A DNA stretch of 64,000 nt from Oscillospiraceae bacterium (GTDB taxonomy: Bacteria > Bacillota > Clostridia > Oscillospirales > CAG-272). Made by a program: the position numbers and the translations under genes. The notes below the pieces were generated by a model. It did not search any database and was not told where the DNA came from. It saw only the letters and a list, made by a program, of their open reading frames with translations. The stretch is taken from the NCBI GenBank assembly GCA_015063695.1, contig SVTQ01000010.1:609-64608 (forward strand), in the 5' to 3' direction. Below are positions 17,458-48,304 of this stretch, piece by piece. The number at the start of each line of letters is the position of its first letter. The stretch's first letter is position 1.

Positions 17458-17474
17458 AGAAAGAGGTTAAAAAC

Positions 17475-19397
17475 ATGAAAAGATTAATATGTTTTCTTTT
17501 GGCTTTGACAATTACCCTCACTGTAACTCCTGTTTTCGGAGCTACTGTTTATAAATATTACTGCGAAGACGGCATTACCGCTAAGGTTGACGCGACAGCT
17601 AAGACCCTCACCCTCTCAGGAGAAGGTGATATGATGGACTACGCCGCGGACAACAGACCTCCGTGGTATGAAAGAAAATCCATATACACAAAGGTAATTA
17701 TCGAAAACGGCATTACCTCCATCGGCGACTATGCCTTCACCGATAACCTTGTGCTTGTTTCGGCAGATATCCCCGAATCCGTAACAAAAGTCGGAGACTA
17801 TGCTTTCCAGAAGTGTATCAAACTCACTGATATGCATTTTTCCGATAACGTAAAAGAGATCGGCATCTATGCTTTGGCCGATTGTAACGCACTGAAGAGA
17901 GTAACTCTCCCCAAGGTACTCCCCGAAATTCCTCAGGCGTTGTTCAGATGCAGTTATTATATTGAAAGCATCGTAATGCCCGAGGACTGTCCCTCTATCG
18001 GTGCCAGCGCATTCATGAGCTGCTCATACCTCAAAAATATAACTCTGCCCGCAAATCTCAGATCCATCGGAAACTATGCTTTCAACGGATGTAACGCTCT
18101 CGCTTCCGTTACGATACCGAACGGTACCGAGTCCATCGGTGACTTTGCTTTTTACAGTCTTTCAAAGCTCAGCGAGATAAACATTCCAAGCTCCGTAAAC
18201 TATATAGGTGAGGATGCTTTCTGCGGCACTCCTTGGTACAATGCTCTCTCAAACGGATTTAATCTCATTAACGGAATTGCCATCACATATAAAGGAAGTG
18301 CAACTACAAAAACCCTTAAAATTCCCGAAGGTGCCGTAACCGTTGCCCCCGGAATTTGCGGAAGCGCAATCTACGCAACGGAAGTTATAATTCCCGACTC
18401 TGTAAAATCTATCAGTCAATATGCCTTCTACGGTCTTTCATCTCTCTATTCAGTAACTATTCCCGATAATGTGGAAACTATAGGTGACTATGCTTTAGGT
18501 TATTACGCATCTTCGTTAGGTTCTCCCACTCCGATCTATCCCTTCACCATTTATTCAAGCAATCCTGTCGCAAAGGAATATGCCGAAAACAATCAGTTTG
18601 ATTTCGTATGTCTCCACAAGGAATACTCCTTATCAAACTATCCCGACTGCACCGTAGGCGGCACTGCTGACAAAATCTGCCTCTGTTGCGGTGAAATTAT
18701 AGGAACAGAAGACATATCCAAAGGAACTCATAGCTATAAAACAAAGATTTTCGGTGCAACTTGTACCGAAAACGGATTCATAAAGAGCTCATGTACAGTT
18801 TGCGGATATGAAAGGACTACCGTTACCGAGCCTGCAACAGGCCACACCGCAAACGGAAGCTTCAAAATTCAGAACTCCACGTGTGCAGAAAGCGGCTGTA
18901 TCTATAAGCTCTGTGATATCTGCGGCGAAAGCTTTGATGAAGTGAAAATAGAAAAGCTTCCACACACGCCTTCCGAAAAGAAGACTGTGGTAACGGCTCC
19001 CACTTGCATTGAAGAGGGTGAGTACTGCGTTCTCTGCAAAGACTGCGGTGAAGTCCTTGAAAAAGGAACTATCCCTGCACATGGACACACAAAAAGCTCA
19101 GAATTTACAGTTCTTAATGATTCCGACTATTTTGAAGATATCAAAGGACTTTATATAAGAGAGTGCACTAATTGTCACATAGCTCTGGACTATGGAGAAT
19201 TCTACAAGGGTGATTTGAACAATGATGAGGAAATTAATTCCCGTGATATTATAATTATTAAAAAGATTCTTGCAGGCGATATTTCCTATGATGAAGAAAA
19301 GCTAATATTACTTGAATTTCTGGGCGACATGAACAACGATGGGGAAATCACATCGCGAGACAATATAGCACTGAAGAAAATCGTCAGAAACGGCTGA
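17475..19397 (+). CDS. Secreted BspA-type LRR protein with Cys3-His repeat modules and a type I dockerin
   Basis: Signal peptide. LRR_5-type repeats. Five Cys3-His modules. C-terminal duplicated Ca-binding loops GDLNNDEEINSRD and GDMNNDGEITSRD (dockerin). Confidence 0.85.
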   Translation: MKRLICFLLALTITLTVTPVFGATVYKYYCEDGITAKVDATAKTLTLSGEGDMMDYAADNRPPWYERKSIYTKVIIENGITSIGDYAFTDNLVLVSADIPESVTKVGDYAFQKCIKLTDMHFSDNVKEIGIYALADCNALKRVTLPKVLPEIPQALFRCSYYIESIVMPEDCPSIGASAFMSCSYLKNITLPANLRSIGNYAFNGCNALASVTIPNGTESIGDFAFYSLSKLSEINIPSSVNYIGEDAFCGTPWYNALSNGFNLINGIAITYKGSATTKTLKIPEGAVTVAPGICGSAIYATEVIIPDSVKSISQYAFYGLSSLYSVTIPDNVETIGDYALGYYASSLGSPTPIYPFTIYSSNPVAKEYAENNQFDFVCLHKEYSLSNYPDCTVGGTADKICLCCGEIIGTEDISKGTHSYKTKIFGATCTENGFIKSSCTVCGYERTTVTEPATGHTANGSFKIQNSTCAESGCIYKLCDICGESFDEVKIEKLPHTPSEKKTVVTAPTCIEEGEYCVLCKDCGEVLEKGTIPAHGHTKSSEFTVLNDSDYFEDIKGLYIRECTNCHIALDYGEFYKGDLNNDEEINSRDIIIIKKILAGDISYDEEKLILLEFLGDMNNDGEITSRDNIALKKIVRNG

Positions 19398-22560: not shown

Positions 22561-23001
22561 ATGATTCCAAAACAGAAAGATTTAACTATGTCAACTTCAA
22601 GGAAATTGCTTGAGACTTACCTTGCAAAGGATAACAACGAGCTCGTCTCTCTTGCAAAAGATGCTTACAGCAGAATAATGCCATTTTGCAAAAAGCTCTA
22701 CAATAACGAAAAAGACGGAGTTATAGTTCTTTTCACATTCATTATTACCGCTGTAGGTGCAGACTGTGAGCTCACTCCCCGCGAAAGAGCCTTTCTCCGC
22801 GAGGTCATAAAAGTAAGCGATGAGCTTATAATCAAATGTGTAAACGCCTTTAACCCTAAGATGGATACTCTTGCAGATACTCTTTTCGATAATTTCCCCA
22901 CAGACGTACGTAAAGATCTGCTCACCTTTATTCTCTGCGTCCTCGCCTCGGACGGAGTTACCCGCGAGGAAACGGAATTTTTGAGAATTCTTCTGGCATA
23001 G
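22561..23001 (+). CDS. Hypothetical protein, possibly TerB-like
   Basis: Two helical repeats carrying AD(C/G)ELTPRERAFL and SDGVTREETEFL, reminiscent of TerB/DjlA N-domains. Weak assignment. Confidence 0.35.
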   Translation: MIPKQKDLTMSTSRKLLETYLAKDNNELVSLAKDAYSRIMPFCKKLYNNEKDGVIVLFTFIITAVGADCELTPRERAFLREVIKVSDELIIKCVNAFNPKMDTLADTLFDNFPTDVRKDLLTFILCVLASDGVTREETEFLRILLA

Positions 23002-23010
23002 CATAAAAGA

Positions 23011-23066
23011 GAACCCCTTACTAAAGAGAACCCCAAGCCGTCTTACGACAGCTTGAGGACCCCTTG
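23011..23066 (+). repeat. REP-like element, solo middle module (M3)
   Basis: Reverse complement AGGGGTCCTCAAGCTGTCGTAAGACGGCTTGGGGTTCTCTTTAGTAAGGGGTT aligns with the insert of copy C (30503..30553: AGGGGTCCTCAAGCTATCTCAGATAGCTTGGGGTTCTCGTTTGTTGGGGTT). Confidence 0.65.
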
Positions 23067-23073
23067 TCAAACG

Positions 23074-23105
23074 AAAAATGCACTGTATTACGCAGTGCAT
23101 TTTTT
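23074..23105. terminator. Bidirectional terminator between convergent genes
   Basis: AAAAATGCACTG-TATTACG-CAGTGCATTTTT. A-run and T-run flank a GC-containing stem. Confidence 0.75.
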
Positions 23106-23111
23106 CTTGTA

Positions 23112-24308
23112 TTAAAGATTGTATTCTTCAGCAAGCTTTTTGAAAGCAGGAAGAGCGCGTTTTATCATGTCAGTCGAAACGCAGTAGGAAATACGAACGT
23201 AACCGCTGCAACCGAAGGAATCGGAAGGAACGAGAAGAAGCTCGTACTTTTTAGCTCTTTCACAAAAAGCGGAAGCATCCTCCTCGGGAGATCTCATAAA
23301 GAGATAGAAGGCTCCGTCGGGATGAACACAGCTGAATCCGTATTCGGTAAGAGAATTATAGAGCAGGTCACGGTTTTCGCGGTAAACCCCAATATCCGCT
23401 GTTTTGCCGAGACACTCGGCAACAACCCTCTGCATCATGGAAGGAGCACAAACGAAGCCGAGGGCTCTGCCTGCCCCGCAGATCGCAGCGTATATCTCTC
23501 TGTTATCGGGCATATTTCTGCCGATGGCAATATAACCGATACGCTCACCGGGAAGAGAGAGAGACTTACTGAAGGAATAGCACACAACAGAGGCATCGTA
23601 GCAATTGATAAGATAAGGAACCTCTGTGCTGTCGTCGTAAACAAGCTCTCTGTAAGGCTCGTCGGCAATAAGATATATGATATGACCGTACTCTTTGCTC
23701 TTTGCTTTTAAAAGGGCGCAAAGCTTTTCTATACAGTCGGGAGTGAGAACGACACCCGTGGGATTATTGGGGGTATTGATAATTACAGCCTTTGTTTTTT
23801 CTGAAAGAGTTTTTTCAAGGGCATCAAAGTCAATTCTGAAGCCTTCGGTGTCGGCAGGCACTACTGCAAGAGTTGCTCCCGCGTTTTCCGCAAAAACTCT
23901 GTACTCGGGGAAAAAGGGGGCGATAGCTACGACCTCGTCTCCCTCGCAAACGATGGCATTAAGAGTAACCGTAAGAGATGCCGCCGCGCCGCAGGTCATA
24001 TAGATATCATCCTTTGTAACGTCAGCACCGAAGCGTTTTTTAATATCCTCGGAAATGGCAATTCTGACCTTTTCGTCACCCTGAGCGGACGTGTAACCGT
24101 GAAGAGCTACGGGGCCCATGTTCTCCATAAGGCTCTTTATTGTGCCGTCAACGATCTCGGGAGCAGGTACGCTGGGATTTCCGAGGCTGAAATCGAAAAT
24201 ATTTTCTCTGCCTATCTCTTTCGCTCTGTTGTTTCCGTATTCAAATATCTCTCGGATAACGGAACGGACCGTTCCGAGAGCAACCATTTTCTTATTGATG
24301 TTTGCCAT
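23112..24308 (-). CDS. Class I pyridoxal-phosphate aminotransferase (aspartate/aromatic type)
   Basis: PLP-lysine motif SFSKSLSLPGERIGY, NPTG motif (NTPNNPTGVV). About 400 aa. Last gene of the iorAB-paaK-ACT string (46-nt gap from the ACT gene). Confidence 0.88.
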   Translation of the reverse strand: MANINKKMVALGTVRSVIREIFEYGNNRAKEIGRENIFDFSLGNPSVPAPEIVDGTIKSLMENMGPVALHGYTSAQGDEKVRIAISEDIKKRFGADVTKDDIYMTCGAAASLTVTLNAIVCEGDEVVAIAPFFPEYRVFAENAGATLAVVPADTEGFRIDFDALEKTLSEKTKAVIINTPNNPTGVVLTPDCIEKLCALLKAKSKEYGHIIYLIADEPYRELVYDDSTEVPYLINCYDASVVCYSFSKSLSLPGERIGYIAIGRNMPDNREIYAAICGAGRALGFVCAPSMMQRVVAECLGKTADIGVYRENRDLLYNSLTEYGFSCVHPDGAFYLFMRSPEEDASAFCERAKKYELLLVPSDSFGCSGYVRISYCVSTDMIKRALPAFKKLAEEYNL

Positions 24309-24354
24309 AAATTCTCCATATACGGGTGAAGAGGGAAAATCTCCCTCTCCTCCG

Positions 24355-24783
24355 TCAATTTTTTATCGTTTCCTCGTCAAGAAGCTCAATTCCTGCATCT
24401 GTCAGGACCTTTTCCGCCTTTTCGGAATCGTCTGTTCTCATTACGGTGAAAGCCTTTTCGGTTCTTGTTGTAACGAGAGCATACATATATTCGATGTTTA
24501 CGCCGTTTGCCTCAAGAACGCTGAGGGCATGGGCAAGTCCGCCGGGAACGTCGGGAACTGCAAAAGCAGTAACTTCTCTGATACTCGCGGTGTGGCCTGC
24601 TTCGCGAAGAACTTCAACCGCTTCCTCGGGACGGTCAGCGATGATACGGACTATACCGTAGTCGCTGGTATCTGCAACACACATGGTACGAAGGTCGATA
24701 CCTGCCGCTGCAATTACGTCGGTGATCTCGTGGAGAGTACCTCTTTTATTTTCACAAAATACGGATAACTGTTTAATTCCCAT
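24355..24783 (-). CDS. Tandem ACT-domain protein
   Basis: Two ~65-aa ACT-like halves (LSVFCENKRGTLHEIT..., FAVPDVPGGLAHALS...). This protein type commonly accompanies paaK-like ligases. Confidence 0.75.
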   Translation of the reverse strand: MGIKQLSVFCENKRGTLHEITDVIAAAGIDLRTMCVADTSDYGIVRIIADRPEEAVEVLREAGHTASIREVTAFAVPDVPGGLAHALSVLEANGVNIEYMYALVTTRTEKAFTVMRTDDSEKAEKVLTDAGIELLDEETIKN

Positions 24784-24834
24784 ATCATTTTCTCCTAAAA
24801 ATTATTTCAATGGTTGTTGCGATAAAACTGTTTA

Positions 24835-26148
24835 TCAGTCATGCAGCTTTCTCTTGTCTACTATTCTTACAGCCTTGCCTTCGCTTCTTGCGATAGTCTT
24901 AGGAGCAACAAGGTGAACTGCAGGGCCGATACCCAGCATACTTCTGAGGGCATCACGCAAAGATTTTTCCTTTGCCGCGATGGTCTTTACGGAGTCGTCA
25001 AACTGCTCGGGGGGAAGCTCCACGTATACGTCGAAGGTGTCCGAATTGTTCACGCGTGACAGCTCTATCTGATAGTTGGGAGAGAAGCCTTCCTTAAGAA
25101 GCACCGCTTCTATCTGTGAGGGGAATACGTTTACGCCTCTTATGATCATCATATCGTCGCTTCTGCCCATGGGCTTTGCCATGCGGATGAAGGTTCTTCC
25201 GCAGGAGCACTTTTCGCGGGAGAGAACGCAGATGTCACGGGTACGGTAACGAAGCATGGGAAAAGCTTCTTTGTCAAGACATGTAAATACAAGCTCGCCC
25301 TTTGTTCCTTCGGGAAGAACTTCTCCGGTTTCGGGATTGATTATCTCAGCAAGAAAGTGGTCCTCGTTTATGTGCATACCACCCTGCTCTTCACACTCAA
25401 AGGAAACGCCGGGACCGGAAATTTCCGTAAGTCCGTAAATATCGTATGCCTTGATGCCGAGAGTTTCTTCGATATTTTTTCTGATCTCTGCAGTCCAAGG
25501 CTCTGCGCCGAAGATACCTGCCTTGAGAGGAATAGTGTCGGGAGTATATCCCATTTCCTTAAGGCTCTCGCCGAGGTATGCGGCATAAGAGGGAGTACAG
25601 CAAAGAACTGTGGCTTTAAGGTCAGTCATAAACTGGATCTGTCTTTCTGTATTACCCGAAGACATGGGAAGTGTAAGGCAACCAACCTTATGGGAGCCGC
25701 CGTTGAGACCGGGACCGCCCGTAAACAGACCGTAACCGTAGCTTACCTGAACAACGTCACTCTTATCTGCACCTGCCGCAACAAGAGCTCTTGCGCAGCA
25801 GTCTTCCCAAAGGTCGATATCCTGCTGTGTGTAATATGCGATAACTCTCTTGCCCGTTGTGCCCGAGGTGGACTGAATACGAACACAGTCTTCAAGGGGC
25901 TTTGCAAGCATACCGTAAGGATAATTATCACGAAGATCGCTCTTTTCGATAAAAGGAAGCTTGTGAAGATCCTCTATACCCTTTATGTCATCGGGGGTAA
26001 CGCCCTTCGCCTCCATTTTAGCTCTGTAATAGGGAACGTTATCCCATACATGCTTTACCTGTTTTACCAGCTTTTCCGACTGAAGCTTTTTGATCTCTTC
26101 AACGGGCATAGTTTCAAATTCAGGCTGATAATACTTTTTGTTTTCCAT
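24835..26148 (-). CDS. paaK: Phenylacetate--CoA ligase family (AMP-forming)
   Basis: STSGTTGKRV adenylation motif, YGLTE, C-terminal subdomain typical of PaaK. About 437 aa. Confidence 0.88.
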   Translation of the reverse strand: MENKKYYQPEFETMPVEEIKKLQSEKLVKQVKHVWDNVPYYRAKMEAKGVTPDDIKGIEDLHKLPFIEKSDLRDNYPYGMLAKPLEDCVRIQSTSGTTGKRVIAYYTQQDIDLWEDCCARALVAAGADKSDVVQVSYGYGLFTGGPGLNGGSHKVGCLTLPMSSGNTERQIQFMTDLKATVLCCTPSYAAYLGESLKEMGYTPDTIPLKAGIFGAEPWTAEIRKNIEETLGIKAYDIYGLTEISGPGVSFECEEQGGMHINEDHFLAEIINPETGEVLPEGTKGELVFTCLDKEAFPMLRYRTRDICVLSREKCSCGRTFIRMAKPMGRSDDMMIIRGVNVFPSQIEAVLLKEGFSPNYQIELSRVNNSDTFDVYVELPPEQFDDSVKTIAAKEKSLRDALRSMLGIGPAVHLVAPKTIARSEGKAVRIVDKRKLHD

Positions 26149-26193
26149 TAAATAACCTTCTTCCGTGTTGGAATAAAATATAATATTTTAACT

Positions 26194-26763
26194 TTAGTTT
26201 CTACCTAAAGCAAAAGCCTTTTTGTTCATTTCAACAAATTTCGGCGCCACTGATTTTTCAATAGCGGCGATCCATTTTTCCTCGGGGATGTCAAGATACT
26301 TTGAAAGTCTTCCCATGAGAACGATATTTACAGCCTTTGAAGAGCCTGCTTCAAGAGCGGGAGTGAGAGCGTCGATGGCATCAACCGAGACACCCTTTTC
26401 GGAAAGACCTTCGAGAATACCGTGGGGATATTCTGCGGCTCCCGTGATTACGGGCATAGGGTCTATCTCCTGAGAATTCACGATAATCTTTCCGCCTTCC
26501 TTAAGACAGTCCGCATAACGAGCCGCTTCAAGCTTTTCAAAGGAAACGATAAAGTCTGCCTCGCCCTTGTCGATTATGGGAGAATATACTTTTTCACCTG
26601 CGCGAACGTAAGTCACAACGCTTCCTCCGCGCTGGCTCATACCGTGAACCTCGGAAACCTTTACGTCATAGCCCTCGTCAACAAGAAGTCTGCCAAGGAG
26701 CTTACTTGCGAGAAGAGAGCCCTGACCGCCGACACCTACTATCATTATATCAGCACTTTTCAT
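26194..26763 (-). CDS. iorB: Indolepyruvate:ferredoxin oxidoreductase, beta subunit
   Basis: IVGVGGQGSLLAS nucleotide-fold start. About 190 aa. Start overlaps the iorA stop. Confidence 0.88.
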   Translation of the reverse strand: MKSADIMIVGVGGQGSLLASKLLGRLLVDEGYDVKVSEVHGMSQRGGSVVTYVRAGEKVYSPIIDKGEADFIVSFEKLEAARYADCLKEGGKIIVNSQEIDPMPVITGAAEYPHGILEGLSEKGVSVDAIDALTPALEAGSSKAVNIVLMGRLSKYLDIPEEKWIAAIEKSVAPKFVEMNKKAFALGRN

Positions 26764-28502
26764 TATTCTTCACCTCCGACAATGGCTTTGAAGGGACAGA
26801 GCTGCTTGCACAGACCGCATCCCGTACAGAGAGTTGCATCAATAAACGCTTTGCCGTCCTTCATACTGATGGCAGGACAGCCTATCTTCATGCACGCCTT
26901 ACAGGAACGGCACTTGTCAGTATCAATGGTGAGGGCGGGAGCCGCCTTTACGTACTTGAGAAGAGCGCAGGGGCGTCTTGAAATAATTACGGAGGGTTCG
27001 TTTGCGGCAACCTCTTCACGGATGACCGCTTCCGTTTCCTTGAGGTCGTAGGGGTCAACGACTCTCACGCGGTTTATACCGAGAGCGCGGCAAAGAGCCT
27101 CAAGATCGATCTTGCCTGCAGGGTCGCCCTTGATGTTATATCCCGTTGTGGGATTATGCTGGTGGCCTGTCATGCCTGTGATGGAGTTGTCAACTATAAT
27201 AACGGTGGAATTCGTACCGTTGTAAGCGATATTTGCAAGGCCCGTCATACCTGAGTGCATAAAGGTGGAGTCACCGATAACGCAGACAGTCTTGTTTTCG
27301 CTCTTTTCGCCGAGAGCCTTGTTGAAGCCGTGAATACCCGAAACGGATGCGCCCATACAAAGCACGCTGTCGAGAGCACCGAGGGGAGCGGCAGAACCGA
27401 GAGTATAGCAACCTATATCGCCGAGAGCCGTGAGCTTATTCTTTGAAAGGATATAGAACAGTCCGCGGTGAGGACATCCTGCACACATAACGGGAGGACG
27501 GACGGGTATTGCTTCCTCGCTCTTTGTAAACTTCTTTTCGTCAAGACCGAAAGCCTTCGCGATAAGTCCCTGAGAAAATTCTCCGCAGATGGGAAGGATA
27601 TTCTTTCCGTCAACATCGATGCCCAGTGCCTTACAGTGGTTTTCGATAACGGGGTCAAGCTCTTCGATAACTACAACCCTTTCAACCTTTTCCGCAAAGT
27701 CCTTAATAATATCTACGGGAAGGGGATTTACAAGACCGAGCTTAAGCACGGAAACTCTGTCGCCGAAAACTTCCTTTACGTAGTCGTAGGAAGTACCTGC
27801 GGTGATGATGCCAAGCTTTTTGTCCTCTGCCCATTCAACGCGGTTGAGGGGAGAGGTCTCGGCGAGAGCCGTAAGCTTTTCGCATCTCTCTTCAACGAAG
27901 GGATGGCGGCGGATAGCATTTGCAGGAGCCATTATGTATTTCTGAGGAGCTTTTACGTATTCTTTTGTTTCGATGGCTTTAGGCTCACATGCTTCGACGA
28001 TACCCTGAGAGTGAGCAATTCTTGTGCACATACGGAGAATTACGGGAGTGTCGTATTCTTCGGAAAGCTCAAAAGCGATCTTTGTAAATTCCTTTGCCTC
28101 GAAAGAATCGGAGGGCTCAAGCATGGGAACCTTTGATGCTATGGCATAGTGACGGGAGTCCTGCTCGTTCTGAGAGGAGTGCATGCCGGGGTCGTCGGCA
28201 ACGCAGACAACAAGACCGCCGTTAACTCCCGTATAGGAGAGGGTAAAGAGAGGATCAGCCGCCACGTTAAGTCCTACGTGCTTCATGCAGCAAGCGCTTC
28301 TCGCTCCTGCAAGGGATGCACCGAAAGCAACCTCAAGGGCAACCTTTTCGTTGGGAGCCCATTCGGAGTAGATTTCATCATATTTTGCGGCAAACTCCGT
28401 AATTTCAGTGGAGGGAGTGCCGGGATAGCTTGAAACTACAGCACAGCCTGCTTCATAAAGACCGCGGGCAACTGCTTCGTTTCCTAACATAAGTCTTTTC
28501 AT
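26763..28502 (-). CDS. iorA: Indolepyruvate:ferredoxin oxidoreductase, alpha subunit
   Basis: N-terminal GNEAVARG..SYPGTPSTE, TPP-binding GDSTFMHSG, two C-terminal CxxCxxCxxxCP ferredoxin motifs. Confidence 0.9.
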   Translation of the reverse strand: MKRLMLGNEAVARGLYEAGCAVVSSYPGTPSTEITEFAAKYDEIYSEWAPNEKVALEVAFGASLAGARSACCMKHVGLNVAADPLFTLSYTGVNGGLVVCVADDPGMHSSQNEQDSRHYAIASKVPMLEPSDSFEAKEFTKIAFELSEEYDTPVILRMCTRIAHSQGIVEACEPKAIETKEYVKAPQKYIMAPANAIRRHPFVEERCEKLTALAETSPLNRVEWAEDKKLGIITAGTSYDYVKEVFGDRVSVLKLGLVNPLPVDIIKDFAEKVERVVVIEELDPVIENHCKALGIDVDGKNILPICGEFSQGLIAKAFGLDEKKFTKSEEAIPVRPPVMCAGCPHRGLFYILSKNKLTALGDIGCYTLGSAAPLGALDSVLCMGASVSGIHGFNKALGEKSENKTVCVIGDSTFMHSGMTGLANIAYNGTNSTVIIVDNSITGMTGHQHNPTTGYNIKGDPAGKIDLEALCRALGINRVRVVDPYDLKETEAVIREEVAANEPSVIISRRPCALLKYVKAAPALTIDTDKCRSCKACMKIGCPAISMKDGKAFIDATLCTGCGLCKQLCPFKAIVGGEE

Positions 28503-28636
28503 TGAGGATCTCCGTTTTATATATACAAGTGTATGAGATTTTTAAGATATTTTATATTATAATACAAACCAAGTTATAATTCAATATAAAATTTATAATA
28601 CAAGAAGAAAATTTGTATAAAAAGCCACAAGACAAG

Positions 28637-28662
28637 CATCGGGTACCGTTTGGCACCCGATG
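28637..28662 (-). terminator. Terminator of the symporter gene
   Basis: On the minus strand: CAUCGGGUGCC-AAAC-GGUACCCGAUG, followed by a U-rich tract. The single imperfect pair is G-U on the minus strand but A-C on the plus strand. Confidence 0.7.
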
Positions 28663-28678
28663 CGGATATTCCACGAAA

Positions 28679-30268
28679 TTATTTTTCATCAAGAGAGCTT
28701 CTTACGGGAACCGTTATTTCCTTTTCGTAACAAGCGAACATTTCATCGGTGTTTTCGGGCTTCAGCTTCTGTGTCAAAAGACTGACGACGGGAACGATAA
28801 CAAGACCGCCTACCATGGCAAATACGCCTGAGTAGAGAGAGTTTTTAAATACGAAACCGAGCACTCCGCCGTCAAAGGCGAGCCATTTCATGGATACGGC
28901 AAGCTGAACGAGCATAAGTCCGACACCCCATACGAAGGAAGTCCAGACCGCAGGACGGGTCACTTTTTTCCAGTACAGACCGTAGAGGAACGGAGCAAGG
29001 AACGCGCCTGCAAGTGCGCCCCAGGAAACACCCATCATCTGAGCAATGAATACAACTCCCGACCATACGGAATCCTTGAGAATTGCGATCGCCGCAGAGA
29101 GAACGATGAAAAATACTATAAATGCGCGAAGGATGAAAAGCTTCTTTTTCTCGGAGACTTCTTTCCTTGAAGCGGGTACTATAACGTCAAGGGTAAGAGT
29201 GGATGCCGAGGTGAGAACGAGAGAGGAAAGGGTGGACATGGATGCAGCCAGAACCAGAACTATCACCACAGCTACGATAACGGGAGAAAGGGTTGAGAGC
29301 ATCTTGGGGATTATGGCATCAAAGCCGCCGATGGCAAGTCTTTCTTCTTCCGTCATAAACAGTCTGCCAAAGCCGCCGAGGAAGTAACAGCCGCCTGCAA
29401 CAACTATAGCAAAGAGAGTGGAAATTAGAGTTCCTTTACGAATCGCCGCTTCATTTGTAATGGAGTAGAACTTGCCCACCATCTGAGGAAGTCCCCATGT
29501 GCCGAGTGATGTGAGAAGTACAACGAAAATAAGGAATACAGGGTCGGGTCCGAAGAAGGATGTATACTGCCATCCTCCGTTTGAGCCTTCCGCAAGTGCG
29601 GTAACAGAGCCCATAAGTCCGCCGTTTTCACCCAGCACCGCAAAAATTACGGCTACAATTCCCACAAGCATGATAATGCCCTGAATGAAATCGTTTATTG
29701 CCGTCGCCATGTAGCCGCCGAATACGACGTAAATACCCGTAAGGATCGCCATTGCCGCTATACATACCCAGTAAGGAATTTCAAAAGCTATACCGAAAAG
29801 GCTTGAAAGTCCGTTGTAAAGGGATGCAGTGTAAGGAATGAGGAATACGAATACGATAACGGATGCCGCAATCTTGAGTGCCTTTGAACCGTATCTCTTT
29901 TCAAAAAAGTCGGGCATGGTCTTTGAGTCAAGATGCTGTGTCATAACTCTCGTTCTTCTGCCGAGAATATTCCATGCAAGAAGTGAGCCGATAAAGGCGT
30001 TGCCGAGACCTATCCACGTTGAGGCAAGACCGAAGTTCCAACCGAACTGACCTGCGTAGCCTACAAAAATTACAGCTGAAAAGTATGACGTGCCGAAAGC
30101 AAAAGCTGTAAGCCATGGGCCGACGGAACGACCGCCTAAAACGAAGCCGTTAACGTCGGTCGAATGACGTCTGCAATAAAGACCTACGCCTATCATAAGT
30201 GCAAAAAAACAAATAATAAGTACGGATGTGAGTATCTGAGCAGTAGTCATATCATTTTCTCCTTTCAA
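28679..30268 (-). CDS. Sodium:solute symporter family transporter
   Basis: About 13 TM segments. SSS-type N-terminus (GGRSVGPWLTAFAFGTSYFSAV). Confidence 0.85.
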   Translation of the reverse strand: MKGENDMTTAQILTSVLIICFFALMIGVGLYCRRHSTDVNGFVLGGRSVGPWLTAFAFGTSYFSAVIFVGYAGQFGWNFGLASTWIGLGNAFIGSLLAWNILGRRTRVMTQHLDSKTMPDFFEKRYGSKALKIAASVIVFVFLIPYTASLYNGLSSLFGIAFEIPYWVCIAAMAILTGIYVVFGGYMATAINDFIQGIIMLVGIVAVIFAVLGENGGLMGSVTALAEGSNGGWQYTSFFGPDPVFLIFVVLLTSLGTWGLPQMVGKFYSITNEAAIRKGTLISTLFAIVVAGGCYFLGGFGRLFMTEEERLAIGGFDAIIPKMLSTLSPVIVAVVIVLVLAASMSTLSSLVLTSASTLTLDVIVPASRKEVSEKKKLFILRAFIVFFIVLSAAIAILKDSVWSGVVFIAQMMGVSWGALAGAFLAPFLYGLYWKKVTRPAVWTSFVWGVGLMLVQLAVSMKWLAFDGGVLGFVFKNSLYSGVFAMVGGLVIVPVVSLLTQKLKPENTDEMFACYEKEITVPVRSSLDEK

Positions 30269-30278
30269 CTGCTTTTAA

Positions 30279-30335
30279 GGGGAAACTTTCTGTAGCAAGT
30301 TTCCCCTTATACCCCTTCAAAGACTTTTGAAAAGG
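30279..30335 (+). repeat. REP-like element copy B (M1+M2)
   Basis: GGGGAAACTT-TCTGTAGC-AAGTTTCCCC hairpin, TTATA, CCCCTTCAAAGACTTTTGAAAAGG. Lies 10 nt upstream of the symporter start, so within its leader. Confidence 0.7.
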
Positions 30336-30484
30336 TATAAGAATAAACATTGTATTTTTTATTAAACTTTACGGCTCTTTGATTATCTTCTGTAAACCGA
30401 TAGTTTACAAAGAGCCTATTTATACTTTAATTGGGTAATAAGTTTTTAGTACATTCTCGACCAACTTGAGAAAATACCCTTAAA

Positions 30485-30579
30485 CCCGTTCAAAAGTTTT
30501 GTAGGGGTCCTCAAGCTATCTCAGATAGCTTGGGGTTCTCGTTTGTTGGGGTTTGGGGGACTTTTCTAAAAGTCCCCCC
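30485..30579 (-). repeat. REP-like element copy C (M2-M3-M1, inverted, full length)
   Basis: CCCGTTCAAAAGTTTTGTAGGGG, plus a ~45-nt middle module with a CAAGCTATC/GATAGCTTG hairpin, plus GGGGGACTTTTCTAAAAGTCCCCCC. Starts 7 nt after the ligase stop codon. Confidence 0.8.
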
Positions 30580-30586
30580 ATATTCC

Positions 30587-32230
30587 TCATCCGCTGATCT
30601 GAGCTTCTACGAGGCTGCCGCCGCAGTAGAGCTCGCGAAGACGGGGCTTTTCGATTTTGCCGGTGGGATTACGGGGCACGCTTGCGAAGATAATTTTGCG
30701 AGGTCTCTTGTACTTGGGAAGGGAGAGACAGAATTCATTGATCTCATCTTCTGTGCAGTCCATACCTTCTTTGATTTCAATGATTGCAGCCGCAATTTCG
30801 CCGAGACGCTTGTCGGGAAGACCGATAACGGCAACGTCCTTAATTTTTTCGTGAGCGCGGAGATGGTCTTCGATCTGAACGGGATAAAGGTTTTCGCCTC
30901 CGCTGATGATAACGTCCTTCTTACGGTCAACGAGATAGATAAATCCGTCCTCGTCTTCCTTTGCCATGTCTCCCGTAAGAAGCCAGTCGCCGCGGATAAT
31001 TTCGCTTGTAGCCTCGGGATTTTTGTAATAGCACTTCATAACGCCGGGACCTCTTACTGCAAGCTCACCGACCTCGCCATTTATAACGGGCTTGCCCTTT
31101 TCGTCAACGATTGCAGTTTCCCAAAGGTGACCTGCCTTGCCGATAGCACCTACCTTGTCAATGTTTTCAACACCGAGGTGAACACAGCCGGGACCGATGG
31201 ACTCGGAAAGACCGTAGTTTGTATCGTAATCGTGACTTGGGAACACGCTCTTCCAACGCTTGATAAGAGACGGAGGAACGGGCTGAGCACCTACGTGCAT
31301 AAGACGCCACTGAGAGAGGCGAAAATCTTCAAGCTTAAGGTCTCCTCTGTCAATGGAATCGAGAATATCCTGAACCCACGGAACGAGAAGCCAGACGATG
31401 GTCGCCTTTTCTTCGGAAGCTGTCTGCAGTACCCACTCGGGCTTTACGCCACGGAGAAGAACCGCTTTTGACCCGGTAAGAAGAGAGCCGAACCAGTGCA
31501 TCTTTGCGCCCGTATGGTAAAGAGGAGGAATACAGAGGAAAACGTCGTCCTTTGTCTGGGAGTGATGATTTTGCTCCGTAAGACAGGAGGAAACAAGAGC
31601 CGCATGTCTGTGAAGAATAGCCTTGGGGAAACCTGTAGTGCCCGATGAGAAGTAAATTGCCGCATCGTCCTCATCCTTTATCTCAACGGGAGGAACGGTC
31701 GTGGAGCAATAATAGGTCATCTGAGCATAATTGTCAGCGAACCCCGGAGTTTTTTCTTTGTCACCGACGAAGAAGAAATCGTCAATAGCCGAAAGCTCAT
31801 CGTAGACAGTTTCAATTCTTTCAATAAATTCGGGACCGAACACAAGCATTCTCGCATCCGCAAGGTCGAGACAGTACTTAATTTCATCCGCGGAATATCT
31901 GTAATTCATGGGAACCGCAAGTGCGCCTGTTTTGAGAATACCGAAATAAATGGGAAGCCACTCAAGACAGTTCATAAGAAGAATAGCAACCTTGTCACCC
32001 TTCTTTATTCCTCTTGTGAAAAGAAGATTGGCAAATCTGTTTGCCTTAACGTCGAATTCCTTCCAGGTCATTTCGCGGCGGTACTTTTCGGACTCGCTCG
32101 CCGTGTCTATAAGATTGAATTCACGCCACGTAACGTTTTCTTCCGGCTGATTTTCGGGGTTGACCTCAACGATCGCCACGTCCGTGGGATAAATTTTTGC
32201 ATTTCTTTCAAGAAAATCTGTAATGGGCAT
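30587..32230 (-). CDS. Adenylate-forming acyl/aryl-CoA ligase (ANL superfamily)
   Basis: YFSSGTTGFPKA, WLLTGDMA, DRKKDVIISGGENLYP, terminal GKIEK lysine motif. RBS GGAGGG. Substrate not assignable from sequence. Confidence 0.85.
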   Translation of the reverse strand: MPITDFLERNAKIYPTDVAIVEVNPENQPEENVTWREFNLIDTASESEKYRREMTWKEFDVKANRFANLLFTRGIKKGDKVAILLMNCLEWLPIYFGILKTGALAVPMNYRYSADEIKYCLDLADARMLVFGPEFIERIETVYDELSAIDDFFFVGDKEKTPGFADNYAQMTYYCSTTVPPVEIKDEDDAAIYFSSGTTGFPKAILHRHAALVSSCLTEQNHHSQTKDDVFLCIPPLYHTGAKMHWFGSLLTGSKAVLLRGVKPEWVLQTASEEKATIVWLLVPWVQDILDSIDRGDLKLEDFRLSQWRLMHVGAQPVPPSLIKRWKSVFPSHDYDTNYGLSESIGPGCVHLGVENIDKVGAIGKAGHLWETAIVDEKGKPVINGEVGELAVRGPGVMKCYYKNPEATSEIIRGDWLLTGDMAKEDEDGFIYLVDRKKDVIISGGENLYPVQIEDHLRAHEKIKDVAVIGLPDKRLGEIAAAIIEIKEGMDCTEDEINEFCLSLPKYKRPRKIIFASVPRNPTGKIEKPRLRELYCGGSLVEAQISG

Positions 32231-32283
32231 CTGCGTGCCCTCCTTTCGCGTTTTGCCTTATCTGTCAGTATTTTTGGTATCGT

Positions 32284-32556
32284 AAAAACAAAATCCTCTG
32301 TACAAAAAGTACAGAGGACGAATATATCGCGGTACCACCTCAGTTTACGAACTTCTCACAAAGTCCGCCTCATCAGGCACATTCATGCCCTGCTGTTTTA
32401 CGGTCAGCTTCCGTCGCGGCTTTGGCACATTACGTGTGTTTACCGCGCAGCTTGCGGAATGTATTCGCTTTCCGACTCCGACTGCCTCGCATCAAACGGC
32501 AGCTTTCTGAACGGCTCATCGGGGAGCTACTTGTTTCCGGTCATCACTTTATAATC
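32284..32556 (-). promoter_or_regulatory. T-box riboswitch leader, predicted tyrosine (UAC) specifier
   Basis: Minus strand 5'->3': AGUGAUGA (GA/K-turn). Helix CGGAA/UUCCG. Specifier loop ACAAGUA...GAA-UAC-A (codon at 32461..32463). AG bulge UUCAGAAAG. Distal helix CUGCC/GGCAG. T-box sequence AACUGAGGUGGUACCGCGA (32328..32343). Terminator CCUCUGUAC-UUUUU-GUACAGAGG (32295..32317) plus U-run, mutually exclusive with GAGG/CCUC antiterminator pairing. Confidence 0.85.
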
Positions 32557-32576
32557 GGTTATTAAATTATGTAAAA

Positions 32577-32605
32577 AGTGTAGCACAAAAGCACAAATTT
32601 GTCAA
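32577..32605 (-). promoter_or_regulatory. Sigma-A promoter of the T-box leader
   Basis: Minus strand TTGACA, 17 nt (AATTTGTGCTTTTGTGC), TACACT. About 20 nt upstream of the leader's GA motif. Confidence 0.65.
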
Positions 32606-32713
32606 GAATGTTTTTAAAAAATCTCAATTTATCAACAAATTCCACAAAATTCCACAAAAAACTTCAGCAAAGTGAAGGCTTTCCCTCTCGGAATTTCATA
32701 TTTTCAACAAAAA

Positions 32714-33373
32714 TCACCAGACTATCTCTTCTCTGCCTTTTGCGCGAAGGAACTCGTTTGCCCTTGAAAAATGACGGCATCCGAAAAATCCGTTGTAAGC
32801 CGAAAGGGGGCTTGGATGAGCGGCAGTCAGAATAAGATGGTTCGGGTTTGTGATAAGCGACCTTTTCGCCTTGGCGTTTGCTCCCCACAGGAGAAATACG
32901 ATAGGTTCGGGAGCATCGTTAAGTAAGCTTATTACTCTGTCGGTAAATATCTCCCATCCGAGGGGTCTGTGGCTGTTGGGAGAACCCTCTCTCACAGTAA
33001 GAACGGTATTGAGAAGCAGAACTCCCTGCCGAGCCCAACGGGTGAGCTCCCCGTTTTCGGGCATGGGTGCACCCACGTCGGTCTCAAGCTCCTTGAAAAT
33101 ATTTTTGAGAGAAGGAGGCATCTGAATTCCCGGCTTTACCGAAAAACAGAGTCCATGTGCCTGACCCGGACCGTGGTAAGGGTCCTGGCCGAGGATAACT
33201 ACCTTTACGTCCTCAAACGCCGTGTATTTAAGGGCATTGAAAATATCGTACATGTCGGGATATATAGTTCGCGTTTTATATTCAACTGCGAGGTTACGCC
33301 TTAAATTCTGATAATATTCCTTTTCAAATTCATCCTTAAGAAGGGCATCCCAGCTGTTTCCCAAGTTTACCAT
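32714..33373 (-). CDS. ung: Uracil-DNA glycosylase (family 1)
   Basis: GQDPYHGPGQAHGLCFSV water-activating loop and HPSPLSA motif. Confidence 0.95.
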   Translation of the reverse strand: MVNLGNSWDALLKDEFEKEYYQNLRRNLAVEYKTRTIYPDMYDIFNALKYTAFEDVKVVILGQDPYHGPGQAHGLCFSVKPGIQMPPSLKNIFKELETDVGAPMPENGELTRWARQGVLLLNTVLTVREGSPNSHRPLGWEIFTDRVISLLNDAPEPIVFLLWGANAKAKRSLITNPNHLILTAAHPSPLSAYNGFFGCRHFSRANEFLRAKGREEIVW

Positions 33374-33578
33374 GACTTTTCTCCGTTTTCTAAAATATCC
33401 GAGTATATTTTACCGCCACTTTCATCCGTTTTCAAGTACCGGGCCGACTTTTGACACTCAAAAATAAAAAAATACCGATGATTTTACGAAAAAGTGGTGC
33501 AATTCTCTAAAATCCGTATTATAATGTAGTTGTAATTATTTTGTACATTGCGACAGAATGCCGCATAAGGAGGCAAAC

Positions 33579-34298
33579 ATGATCAGAGTTACGGTATGGA
33601 ACGAATACTGGCACGAAAAAAACAACGAGGACGTTGCTAAGATCTACCCCGAAGGTATTCACAAGGCAATCGCTGAATTCCTCGGCAAGGAAGAAGACAT
33701 CGAAGTGCGTACAGCTACTCTCGACGATCCCGAATGCGGTCTCACAGAGGAGGTTCTCTGGAATACCGACGTTCTTATCTGGTGGGGCCACTGCTGTCAC
33801 CCCATGGTACCCGATGAGGTTGCCGAAAGAGTTCAGAATGAAGTTCTCAAGGGCATGGGTATGATATTCCTTCACTCCGCCCACCACTCCAAGCCCTTCA
33901 AGAGACTTATGGGTACTACCTGTAACCTCGGTTGGCGCGAAAGCGGCGACCTTGAAAGAATTTGGAAGATCAATGCAGGCCACCCCATCACACAGGGCAT
34001 CGACCACTTCTTCGAGCTCGAACACGAAGAAACCTACGCTGAACCCTTCGGTATTCCCGAACCCGATGAAGTTCTCTTCATGGGCTGGTTCTCGGGCGGC
34101 GAGCTCTTCCGCGCAGGCTGTACCTTCCACCGTGAAAACGGCAGAATTTTCTACTTCCAGCCCGGTCACGAGACCTTCCCCACATTCTATAATGAAAACG
34201 TTCAGACAGTAATCAAAAACGCGGTTCGCTGGGCAGCTCCATCCTTCCGCTCCAACATCCTCACCTGCCCCTTCGTCGAAAAGGCAAACAAGGAATGA
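33579..34298 (+). CDS. ThuA-like (trehalose-utilisation family) protein
   Basis: [12 protein letters not shown] start, class-I-glutamine-amidotransferase-like fold signature typical of ThuA. ATG 33579 is preceded by AAGGAGG. Confidence 0.65.
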
Positions 34299-35537: not shown

Positions 35538-35592
35538 CCCCGTTCAAAAAGTTTTGAAGGGGTTTGGGGGGACTTTTTCAAAAGTACCCCCC
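35538..35592 (-). repeat. REP-like element copy F (M2+M1, inverted)
   Basis: CCCCGTTCAAAAAGTTTTGAAGGGG, TTT, GGGGGGACTTTTTCAAAAGTACCCCCC. Confidence 0.8.
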
Positions 35593-35614: not shown

Positions 35615-37006
35615 TTAAAGTTCGCAGTTGTTTACTGTTCTGGGGAAGGGGATGACGTCACGGATGTTGGAAACACCTGTGAGGTACATAACGCATCTTT
35701 CAAAACCGAGACCGAAGCCTGCGTGACGCGCACTGCCGTAGCGGCGAAGGTCGAGATAGAAGCCGTAGTCTTCCTTGTTGAGACCTAGCTCATCCATACG
35801 GGAAGTGAGCTTGTCGAGGTCGTCTTCACGCTGGCTGCCGCCGATAATTTCGCCGATACCGGGAACGAGACAGTCCATAGCGGCAACGGTCTTGCCGTCC
35901 TCGTTGAGCTTCATGTAGAAAGCCTTGATCTCCTTGGGATAGTCTGTAACGAAAACAGGCTTCTTGTAAACCTCTTCAGTGAGATATCTTTCGTGCTCTG
36001 TCTGAAGGTCACAGCCCCAGAATACCTTGTAATCGAAGTTGTCGTTGTTCTTTTCGAGAATTTCAATAGCTTCCGTATAAGTAACGTGACCGAATTCGGA
36101 GTTGACAACGGAATTGAGTCTGTCAAGAAGACCCTTGTCAACGAAGCTGTTGAAGAAGTTCATTTCTTCGGGTGCGTTTTCAAGAACGTAGTTAATAACG
36201 TACTTGATCATAGCCTCAGCAATTTCCATGTTATCATTAAGGTCAGCAAAAGCCATTTCGGGCTCGATCATCCAGAATTCAGCCGCATGACGTGTGGTGT
36301 TGGAATTCTCCGCACGGAAGGTGGGGCCGAAGGTGTAGATATTTCTGAATGCCATGGCATAGGTTTCACCGTTGAGCTGACCGCTTACGGTAAGGTTTGT
36401 GCTCTTGCCGAAAAAGTCTTCTGTAAAGTCTATCTTGCCTTCCTCGTCGCGGGGAATGTTGTCAAGATCAAGAGTTGTTACACGGAACATTTCACCTGCG
36501 CCCTCGCAGTCACTTGCAGTGATGAGAGGTGTATGAACGTAAACGAAGTTCTGTTCCTGGAAGAACTTGTGAATTGCGTAAGCGCAAAGGGAGCGCACAC
36601 GGAAAACGGCCTGGAACAGGTTTGTTCTGGGACGGAGATGAGAGATCGTGCGGAGAAATTCGGGAGAATGTCTCTTCTTCTGAAGGGGATAGTCGGGAGT
36701 TGACGCGCCCTCAAGGATAACGCTCTCTGCCTGGATCTCAAAAGGCTGCTTCGCATCGGGAGTCATAACGAGAGTACCCTCAACGATAAGCGCGGAGCCA
36801 ACGTTGAACTTAGAAATAGCCTCGAAGTTTTCAAGGGCATCACCGTAAACTATCTGAAGTGTCTGAAAGAAAGAGCCGTCGGAAAGAGTGATAAAGCCGA
36901 AGGACTTGGAAGCGCGGATACTGCGTACCCAACCGCCGACGCGAACCTTTTGCTCGGCATATTTGTCAGTTTCTTTGTAAAGCTCTCTGATGGTCGTAAG
37001 TTCCAT
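35615..37006 (-). CDS. asnS: Asparagine--tRNA ligase
   Basis: OB-fold N-domain ([11 protein letters not shown]). Class II motifs [21 protein letters not shown] and [12 protein letters not shown]. 463 aa. Confidence 0.95.
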
Positions 37007-47014: not shown

Positions 47015-48304
47015 ATGATCGATATTAAACTTATAAAAGAAAACCCCGAAGACGTAGTTGCAAGACTGGCGGCAAAGGGTAAGGATGCAGAAAATGAGAT
47101 AAAGAGAATTCTCGAACTTGACGAAGAACGCCGTTCTCTTATCGCTGAAACAGAAAATAAGAAGGCTGAACAGAACAAGCAGACAAAGCTCGTTCCTCAG
47201 CTCAAGAAGGAAGGCAAGGATGTAACTCCCATTTTCGCAAAAATGAAGGAGCTTGGTGCAGAAGTTAAGGCAGGCGAAGCAAAGCTTGCTGAGGTTGAAG
47301 CAGAATATAACGAGCTCATGCTCGGTCTTCCCAACCTTCCCGACCGTGACCTCGCTCCCGGCGGCAAGGAAAACAACGAGCCTATCAGATACTACGGTGA
47401 ACCTCACGTATTTGATTTCACACCCAAGAACCACGTTGACCTTTGCACATCCTGCGGCCTTATAGACTACGAAAGAGGCGTAAAGCTCTCCGGCAACGGC
47501 TTCTGGATCTATAAGGGTCTCGGAGCGAGACTTGAATGGGCGCTTCTCAACTACTTTATCGACACTCACCTCGGTGACGGCTACGAGCTCGTTCTCGTTC
47601 CCCACATGCTTGGCTACGAATGCGGTCTCACAGCAGGTCAGTTCCCCAAGTTCAAGGACGAAGTATACTGGCTTGACACAGCAGAAGACGAACGCCGCCG
47701 CTTCATGCTTCCCACAGCTGAAACTGCTCTCGTTTCTCTCCACCGCGACGAAATACTTACAGAAGCAGACCTTCCCAAAAAATACATCTCCTACACACCT
47801 TGCTTCCGCCGCGAAGCAGGCTCTTACAGAGCAGACGAGCGCGGTATGGTAAGAGGACATCAGTTCAACAAGGTTGAAATGGTTCAGTACACAAAGCCCG
47901 AAGATTCCGATGCGGCATTTGAAGAACTCGTAGGAAAGGCTGAAGCTCTCGTTAAAGGCCTCGGCTTCCACTTCAGAACTGTTAAGCTTGCGGCAGCAGA
48001 CTGTTCTGCATCCATGGCAAGAACATACGATATCGAAATTCACATCCCCTCTATGGACGGCTACAAGGAAGTTTCCTCCGTTTCCAACGCAAGAGATTAC
48101 CAGGCACGCCGCGGCATGATGAGATTCAGAAGAAACGAAGGCGGCAAGCCCGAATTCCTCCACACTCTCAACGGTTCCGGCCTTGCAACAAGCCGTATTC
48201 TTCCCGCCATCGTAGAACAGAACCAGAACGCTGACGGCTCCGTTACAGTTCCCGAGGTACTCCGCAAGTACATCGGCGTTGACGTAATAAAGCCCATTAA
48301 GTAA
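47015..48304 (+). CDS. serS: Serine--tRNA ligase
   Basis: N-terminal coiled-coil arm. Class II motifs (FRREAGS, GSGLATSRILPAIVEQ). Confidence 0.95.
   Translation: MIDIKLIKENPEDVVARLAAKGKDAENEIKRILELDEERRSLIAETENKKAEQNKQTKLVPQLKKEGKDVTPIFAKMKELGAEVKAGEAKLAEVEAEYNELMLGLPNLPDRDLAPGGKENNEPIRYYGEPHVFDFTPKNHVDLCTSCGLIDYERGVKLSGNGFWIYKGLGARLEWALLNYFIDTHLGDGYELVLVPHMLGYECGLTAGQFPKFKDEVYWLDTAEDERRRFMLPTAETALVSLHRDEILTEADLPKKYISYTPCFRREAGSYRADERGMVRGHQFNKVEMVQYTKPEDSDAAFEELVGKAEALVKGLGFHFRTVKLAAADCSASMARTYDIEIHIPSMDGYKEVSSVSNARDYQARRGMMRFRRNEGGKPEFLHTLNGSGLATSRILPAIVEQNQNADGSVTVPEVLRKYIGVDVIKPIK

Follow-up and report, generated by a model that had tools for sequence, protein, structure and literature searches.

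A tyrosine-type T-box leader upstream of a CoA ligase and a sodium:solute symporter in Oscillospirales, with a proposed role in making tyrosine from 4-hydroxyphenylacetate

The stretch of DNA analysed here, 64,000 nucleotides from an Oscillospiraceae bacterium (contig SVTQ01000010.1, positions 609 to 64,608; hereafter the window), carries on its minus strand a T-box riboswitch leader with the tyrosine specifier UAC. This leader lies directly 5' of a gene for an adenylate-forming acyl/aryl-CoA ligase of 547 aa, and the gene after that encodes a sodium:solute symporter (SSF). The T-box, its specifier, its conservation among related species and its linkage to these genes were all observed directly. 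On balance, we consider it probable that this tyrosine T-box gates a ligase and a symporter which, together with the enzymes encoded beside them, rebuild tyrosine from 4-hydroxyphenylacetate.

When the 64-kb window was searched with cmscan, RF00230 (T-box) was the sole Rfam family that scored above its gathering score. The match extended over 32553..32311 (-) and covered the full model (positions 1-219), with 102.7 bits against a gathering score of 93 and an E-value of 1.5e-21. A permissive Rfam scan of the region 22800..33600 returned, besides this one T-box, just two small RNA matches at chance level, and the minimum free energy of the leader had a z-score of -3.25. A first-pass annotation, made from the sequence alone, had placed a T-box on this strand and had named the Rfam model as a means of checking it; that check was run here and agrees with the proposal. 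All the parts that the annotation had listed (promoter, GA motif, Stem I, S-turn, AG bulge, distal helix, T-box sequence and terminator) are likewise present. The Rfam match (32311..32553) and the covariation in 32 orthologous leaders described below identify the element as a canonical class-I transcription-attenuating T-box riboswitch and a genuine member of the family.

The architecture of the leader, read along the minus strand, follows the standard order. It is preceded by a sigma-70-type promoter (32577..32605) in which the hexamer TTGACA (32605..32600) is separated by a 17-nt spacer from a TG-extended -10 hexamer TACACT (32582..32577), giving 10/12 matches, and both hexamers are kept in the relatives L082 (96%) and L081 (92%). 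Stem I occupies 32450..32548, as judged from sequence reading, the Rfam alignment and compensatory pairs. It starts with the GA/K-turn motif AGUGAUGA (32548..32541) and a lower helix in which CCGGAA (32540..32535) pairs with UUCCG (32459..32455), continues with the two S-turn halves of the specifier loop, AGUA (32531..32528) and GAA (32466..32464), and also contains the AG bulge AGAAA (32508..32504) and the distal helix CUGCC/GGCAG with the loop GUUUGAUGCGA. Between Stem I and the T-box sequence, the Rfam alignment places Stem II, Stem IIA/B and the Stem III region (32347..32449). The conserved T-box sequence AAACUGAGGUGGUACCGCGA is found at 32346..32327 and includes UGGU at 32337..32334, a bulge sequence that suits a tRNA with A73, as had been pointed out in the first-pass annotation. 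The antiterminator (32314..32341) consists of GAGG, the bulge UGGUACC, the hairpin GCGA-UAUAU-UCGU and CCUC, and the intrinsic terminator with its U tract extends over 32284..32319, its hairpin (32319..32293) having an 11-bp stem with the core CCUCUGUAC-UUUUU-GUACAGAGG. The CCUC at 32317..32314 is common to the 5' arm of the terminator and the 3' strand of the antiterminator. Two single G-to-A departures from consensus were observed, one in the AG bulge (AGAAA versus AGAGA) and one in the distal loop (UUGAUG versus UUGGUG, at approximately 32491..32496). Both are common to the two closest relatives, L081 and L082, and the two positions, in the interdigitated T-loop platform, may have changed as a pair.

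The specifier codon UAC (Tyr) is located at 32463..32461, the canonical position, and is followed by A32460 and then by the helix strand UUCCG, so that the earlier assignment of UAC as the specifier holds. According to the rule used in TBDB, the specifier lies 2-4 nt before the 3' end of the specifier bulge and NNC codons are strongly preferred (PMC7778990); the UAC of the window leader lies within this distance. UAC and UUC together account for 99% of the known tyrosine and phenylalanine specifiers in that database (PMC7778990). The first-pass annotation had also proposed to look for conservation of the specifier in orthologous leaders, and such conservation was found: in the alignment of 32 leaders the codon lies in unpaired columns, its first base is always U and its last always C, and only the middle base varies, giving UAC (Tyr) in 25 leaders, the window included, and UUC (Phe) in 7. 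The 96% and 92% relatives both keep UAC. Two shifted frames were considered as well and rejected, the +1 frame for its inconsistent mix of Thr and Ser codons, and the -1 frame, which reads Ile in most leaders, for its Leu codon in L025 and L042.

To place the leader in a comparative setting, one genome per species was scanned, which yielded >599 matching stretches, and the best 80 loci were kept (69-87% ligase identity). All but one of these 80 loci come from metagenome-assembled genomes or isolates of Clostridia/Bacillota, mostly Acutalibacteraceae, Oscillospiraceae, Ruminococcus, Faecousia and Pseudoflavonifractor. While a strict T-box motif search (GGTGGTACC[AG]CG) of these loci gave just ~19 leaders, a profile built from leaders raised the count to 31 leaders in 30 loci: 30 of the 80 have a T-box directly 5' of the ligase gene or of an SSF-ligase gene pair, and locus L076 has a further one. 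The leaders passed the Rfam threshold in 10 of 12 sampled orthologous loci. Rfam scans of 19 leaderless loci gave no T-box at threshold, so that the absence of a leader from these loci is real at this threshold. On the 32 leaders, RNAalifold predicted Stem I, Stem II, Stem III and the terminator, with compensatory changes in 41 of the 49 predicted pairs; pairs in Stem II, Stem III and the terminator covary, and GGUGGUA is invariant. Near-identical leaders are present in the 96% and 92% relatives, with compensatory changes in Stem III of L081. In many lineages, these alignments show clear purifying and compensatory selection on the leader.

The first gated open reading frame (30587..32230 (-), with the ribosome-binding site GGAGG at 32243..32239) encodes the 547-aa acyl/aryl-CoA ligase. 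As the first-pass annotation had recognised, it is an adenylate-forming enzyme of the ANL superfamily, with both characteristic domains: the AMP-binding domain PF00501 (240.9 bits) and the C-terminal lid PF13193 (46.9 bits). It belongs to a large orthologous family in Oscillospirales, and we propose that it is a 4-hydroxyphenylacetate (arylacetate)-CoA ligase. No named NCBIfam ligase model (FadD, MenE, malonyl-CoA and others) reached its cutoff with this protein, the best being PRK06187 with 417.8 bits against a cutoff of 476, and the remaining models lay far under theirs. A sequence search of the PDB returned generic ANL relatives only, without a substrate call, the closest solved structures being FadD13, FadD5, feruloyl-CoA synthetase and 4-coumarate-CoA ligases.

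The leader had been described in the first-pass annotation as controlling a ligase instead of a biosynthetic or transporter gene. This framing does not stand, as the next gene (28679..30250 (-), PF00474) encodes the SSF transporter, for which we propose a role as aryl-acid importer. Its likely start is the ATG at 30250, which follows AAAGGAG, while the listed open reading frame begins with a TTG at 30268; the SSF product of L082 has 523 aa, and the window protein lies below every NCBIfam equivalog cutoff. Ligase and SSF genes are separated by a spacer (30251..30586 (-)) that measures ~336 nt up to this likely ATG start and contains three hairpins as well as one weak promoter-like site (30410..30382); a canonical minus-strand terminator was not found in it. 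Approximately 235 nt of this spacer are missing from the 96% relative L082, whose spacer measures 84 nt, and this segment could be a small mobile or REP-like (repetitive extragenic palindromic) insertion. The spacer contains three strong palindromes, GGGGGGACTTTTAGAAAAGTCCCCC, CCCCAAGCTATCTGAGATAGCTTGAGG and GGGGAAACTTGCTACAGAAAGTTTCCCC, and short palindromes resembling them lie 3' of the aminotransferase gene described below (23031..23058) and near 35.55 kb (35547..35591). When the remainder of the window and the loci were searched for a repeat family shared with the spacer, the window gave just short palindromic matches (23050..23064 and 35547..35591) and the loci none. The SSF gene is followed by a terminator-like hairpin (28636..28663 (-); 12 bp, 8 of them G-C), the stem of which is kept in L082 with a different loop, and then by a promoter-like sequence TTGAAT-17-TATAAT (28556..28584 (-)), which is also kept in L082. 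The T-box-controlled unit in this clade is therefore most likely the ligase gene plus the SSF gene, ending at 28663..28636, while the genes that follow are most likely driven by their own promoter.

These following genes form an IOR cluster on the same strand (IOR, indolepyruvate:ferredoxin oxidoreductase). The first, iorA (26763..28502), encodes the alpha subunit of an indolepyruvate (arylpyruvate):ferredoxin oxidoreductase with thiamine pyrophosphate and 4Fe-4S domains (TIGR03336, 733 bits against a cutoff of 650.9), and iorB (26194..26763) the beta subunit (NF005325, 268.9 bits against 230), so that both subunits pass the IOR equivalog cutoffs. Downstream lies a gene for a PaaK-like protein of the phenylacetate-CoA ligase family (24835..26148), which is assigned to the PaaK family by PF14535 and fails the equivalog cutoff of TIGR02155, the model for aerobic PaaK (522.1 bits against 646.3). 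It is followed by genes for an ACT-domain-pair protein (24355..24783; PF19571, ACT_8), likely an amino-acid-binding regulator, and a class I/II pyridoxal-phosphate-dependent aminotransferase (23112..24308; NF005305, 559 bits against 376), after which comes another terminator-like hairpin (23058..23031). The ACT-pair gene is always found 3' of the PaaK-like ligase gene in the conserved cluster; its product is a candidate partner that senses amino acids and through which the ligase could come under feedback control.

The order ligase-(SSF)-iorA-iorB-paaK-ACT(-aminotransferase) recurs across the 80 loci. In 33 of the 53 loci with room for it, iorA lies at most 2.6 kb downstream of the ligase gene, often with gaps of 20-50 bp, and the SSF gene adjoins the ligase gene, on either side, in 31 of the 80. 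A single cluster thus encodes uptake (SSF), CoA activation (two ligases), the oxidoreductase (IorAB) and an aminotransferase, which makes it a putative gene set for obtaining an aromatic amino acid from an aryl-acetate with all steps encoded. The ligase had looked like an odd target for a T-box, and this impression is not upheld, given that in most species with enough sequence the ligase gene is syntenic with those for IorAB, the PaaK-like ligase, the ACT protein and the aminotransferase. Because the ligase sits in a gene set leading from aryl-acetate to amino acid, the leader would follow normal T-box logic, that is amino-acid supply, by an alternative route.

The distribution of the two specifiers over the gene arrangements was informative. 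Stand-alone units of the types T-box-ligase, T-box-SSF-ligase and T-box-ligase-SSF all carry UAC, and these units precede unrelated genes (mraZ-mraW, M42 peptidases, an ABC transporter, an epimerase). Where the sequence downstream of a UUC leader is complete, the leader heads an operon that includes iorAB-paaK. Both types occur together in L076 (Pseudoflavonifractor), where a UAC leader is located 5' of the ligase gene and a UUC leader 5' of iorAB-paaK-ACT-aminotransferase (leaders at 9707..9965 and 11727..11987). The promoter and leader sequences of this pair are very similar, and it looks as if one leader had been duplicated and the specifier of one copy then switched by a single base. From the pattern of specifiers and genes, it appears that the 547-aa ligase and the SSF transporter belong with tyrosine and the PaaK branch with phenylalanine.

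Leaderless loci combine a plain promoter with a short untranslated region (UTR), and their sequences suggest that a protein regulator replaces the T-box there. In L002, L003, L007 and L008, a -35-like sequence TCGACAAA (TTGACAAA in L008) was observed ~150 nt 5' of the ligase gene; it was not seen in L013. Most such leaderless loci have a short, AT-rich and partly palindromic 5' UTR. In the 88% relative L083 (8630..17336), the gene order is SNF-ligase-SSF-iorAB-paaK-ACT behind a plain promoter and without a T-box, with the NSS/SNF-family transporter gene (PF00209) 22 nt 5' of the ligase gene. T-boxes for aromatic amino acids are known to target NSS transporters (PMC2494555).

Based on these data we propose the following sequence of events. 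When tRNA-Tyr is mostly uncharged, its anticodon would pair with UAC in the specifier loop of Stem I and its free NCCA end with UGGU in the antiterminator bulge. The antiterminator (32341..32314) would then be favoured over the terminator (32319..32293), and RNA polymerase would enter the ligase and SSF genes. The symporter would import an aryl-acetate, which under a tyrosine leader would be 4-hydroxyphenylacetate, and the ANL ligase would turn it into its CoA thioester. IorAB would reductively carboxylate this thioester with reduced ferredoxin and CO2 to 4-hydroxyphenylpyruvate, which the aminotransferase of the cluster would convert to tyrosine; phenylacetate would enter this route by way of the PaaK-like ligase and lead to phenylalanine. 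The riboswitch step rests on membership of the T-box family, from which readthrough of the leader in response to tRNA-Tyr is predicted, while the metabolic steps are an inference, drawn from the genes present, their synteny, the identity of the specifier and the consideration that induction by starvation points to supply. This applies to the substrates of ligase and transporter, to the extent of the transcript and to the anabolic direction of the IOR, which we favour because induction by uncharged tRNA makes sense only for a pathway that supplies an amino acid. The first-pass annotation had surmised that the ligase makes something needed when tRNA-Tyr is uncharged; in keeping with this idea, the gene set points to 4-hydroxyphenylacetyl-CoA, en route to tyrosine, as the most likely product. 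For the more far-reaching proposal, that the 547-aa ligase and the SSF transporter are a 4-hydroxyphenylacetate-specific entry to an anabolic IOR pathway, and that tyrosine and phenylalanine are made in this way by many Oscillospirales of gut and rumen, from aryl-acetates that other microbes release, under tuning by tRNA charging and with consumption of precursors of p-cresol and phenylacetylglutamine, we regard the chances as even.

Several observations weigh against this proposal. The AG bulge and the distal loop, which are the motifs of the tRNA-elbow platform, are each one base off consensus, and the window contains no tRNA gene against which the partner tRNA could be checked. The leader is present in just 30 of the 80 orthologous loci, and the nearest relatives in the genome collection (L002, L003, L007 and L083) have a plain promoter instead. 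Furthermore, the ligase falls under all NCBIfam cutoffs, and the solved structures nearest to it are those of fatty-acyl, feruloyl and 4-coumarate ligases. For the SSF gene, co-transcription is assumed across a spacer with a ~235-nt insertion, hairpins and a weak promoter-like site, and iorAB lies in the window beyond a terminator-like hairpin, apparently with its own promoter, such that control of the IOR by this T-box is not demonstrable. Lastly, tyrosine and phenylalanine leader types are interleaved on the ligase tree, where the ligases under both are up to 86% identical, and the phenylalanine type arose at least 4 times by a single A-to-U change. Because of this interleaving and this level of identity, the ligase may accept both aryl-acetates. 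It is accordingly possible, if rather doubtful, that the ligase is a general arylacetate-CoA ligase for phenylacetate and 4-hydroxyphenylacetate, and that the specifier only mirrors the limiting amino acid of each species. The identity of 85-86% between ligases under tyrosine and phenylalanine leaders and the repeated origin of the phenylalanine type are what such an enzyme would lead one to expect, whereas the consistent UAC of all stand-alone ligase units, and the split in L076 between tyrosine (ligase) and phenylalanine (iorAB-paaK), are not; nor would there be a clear reason to keep a second, PaaK-type ligase if the first were general. A ligase of this kind would refine, rather than contradict, the explanation that we prefer.

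A different substrate altogether seems unlikely to us. Here the T-box would be real and tyrosine-responsive, and the ligase would activate another tyrosine-related acid, such as 3-(4-hydroxyphenyl)propionate, 4-hydroxyphenyllactate, p-coumarate or 4-hydroxybenzoate, feeding tyrosine or a tyrosine-derived product by a route not through the IOR. This would fit with feruloyl-CoA synthetase and 4-coumarate-CoA ligases being among the closest solved structures, with the occurrence of the T-box-ligase unit alone, without an IOR nearby, in several species, and with the separate PaaK-like arylacetate ligase that the cluster already has. However, iorA follows directly 3' of the ligase gene in 33 of the 53 loci with room, often at 20-50 bp; genes for enoyl-CoA hydratase, dehydratase or lyase, as in a propionate/cinnamate route, are not among the cluster genes; and the CoA substrate of an IOR is arylacetyl-CoA. 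We consider it very unlikely that the cluster is catabolic, with the IOR oxidising arylpyruvates from tyrosine and phenylalanine fermentation, the AMP-forming ligases reversed for ATP, and the T-box misplaced or decaying. It is true that IORs are best known from peptide fermentation, that one contributes to phenylacetate production in Bacteroides (PMC13285125), and that a leader is kept in only the 30 loci. Nevertheless, inducing tyrosine breakdown by uncharged tRNA-Tyr would be counter-productive, the leader bears the signs of purifying and compensatory selection in many lineages, and its specifier always stands for an aromatic amino acid. Moreover, AMP-forming ligases favour thioester synthesis (an argument made in PMC13285125), and an importer fits the uptake of a precursor. 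Least credible, and barely to be expected at all, is a specifier one base earlier (AUA/AUU, Ile), with the ligase and a 2-oxoacid:ferredoxin oxidoreductase salvaging 2-methylbutyrate to isoleucine. The conversion of 2-methylbutyrate to isoleucine is another reductive carboxylation known from rumen bacteria. The -1 frame is indeed AUA or AUU in most leaders, UGGU also suits A73 of tRNA-Ile, and the ligase resembles medium- and long-chain fatty-acid ligases. This frame conflicts with the 2-4 nt rule and the strong NNC preference of TBDB (PMC7778990), and in L025 and L042, where the 3' loop segment is 8 nt long, it reads UUA (Leu) while the canonical frame is still UAC; Rfam aligns UAC to the codon positions of the model in L025. 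In addition, the oxidoreductase passes the IOR equivalog cutoff and the operon includes a PaaK-family ligase.

In its build, the window leader resembles the tyrosine T-box leaders of the Bacillus subtilis tyrS type, with which it shares the K-turn of Stem I, the S-turn specifier loop, the AG bulge, the distal loop, Stems II and III, the UGGN antiterminator bulge with a competing terminator, the UAC specifier and a UGGU suited to A73. It differs from them by the G-to-A changes in AG bulge and distal loop and by regulating a CoA ligase and an SSF symporter. The riboswitch itself is ordinary and contributes nothing new to the T-box mechanism. Targets of tyrosine T-boxes recorded in surveys are tyrS, shikimate-pathway genes, phhA and NhaC/NSS transporters (PMC2494555; PMC3766115 supplement), and a CoA ligase, iorA and paaK are absent from the RegPrecise T-box tables (PMC3766115 supplement) and from Wels 2008 (PMC2494555). 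A literature search combining T-box with indolepyruvate, phenylacetate or IOR found no paper (Vitreschak 2008 lay outside this comparison), and a search for hydroxyphenylacetyl-CoA found natural-product and E. coli papers only. A standard T-box is thus combined with a regulated gene set that is new to the T-box family and, as far as the literature found, not previously described. T-boxes are known to evolve by duplication and specifier change (PMC2494555), and the single-base UAC/UUC switches and the duplicated leaders of L076 are in line with this. The switch here would part the tyrosine and phenylalanine branches of one salvage pathway, rather than a synthetase and a transporter.

The proposed chemistry has precedents. 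Aryl acids feed aromatic amino-acid synthesis via the IOR in Methanococcus maripaludis, according to the account of Porat et al. 2004 given in PMC4162585, and rumen bacteria synthesise phenylalanine from phenylacetate, according to the account of Allison 1965 given in PMC7356843. The proposed route has the same steps, from aryl-acetate via arylacetyl-CoA and, by IOR reductive carboxylation, arylpyruvate to the amino acid. What would set it apart is the Oscillospirales host, the dedicated 547-aa ANL ligase, the SSF importer and the T-box control. In Bacteroides, the AMP-forming ligase beside the IOR is an arylacetate-CoA ligase, and an anabolic role has been suggested, tentatively (2026, PMC13285125). 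The clusters are alike in that an IOR is co-located with an AMP-forming ligase of the arylacetate-CoA type and is possibly anabolic. The window, however, has two ligases (one ANL FadD/4CL-like, one PaaK-like), a transporter, an ACT protein and an aminotransferase, and no T-box is reported for the Bacteroides cluster in PMC13285125; the T-box gives regulatory evidence on the direction that the Bacteroides case is without.

Elsewhere in the window there are two aminoacyl-tRNA synthetase genes, one for a class II Asp/Asn/Lys-type enzyme (35615..37006 (-)) and serS (47015..48304 (+)). Neither has a T-box at the Rfam gathering score, and the sole T-box in the 64 kb gates the ligase gene. The regions 15511..19397, 48940..49953 and 50549..51910 code for three BspA-type leucine-rich-repeat proteins and a MORN-repeat protein. 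The presence of gyrB, gyrA and parA/parB places the window close to the origin of the chromosome.

Assigning function to unknown genes by way of T-box specifiers is an established approach (PMC7778990). In the present case, the specifiers connect tyrosine supply with two proteins of gut and rumen Oscillospirales, an SSF transporter and a ligase that is very common yet unnamed. In addition, they provide independent, regulation-based evidence that the cluster of IOR and arylacetate ligase runs biosynthetically in gut Firmicutes. Apart from the tentative suggestion for Bacteroides, this direction is known from methanogens and from early labelling work on the rumen. If the proposed reading is true, these bacteria would be sinks for 4-hydroxyphenylacetate and phenylacetate, metabolites that are tied to p-cresol and phenylacetylglutamine, and genome-based auxotrophy predictions that consider only the shikimate pathway would be wrong for them.

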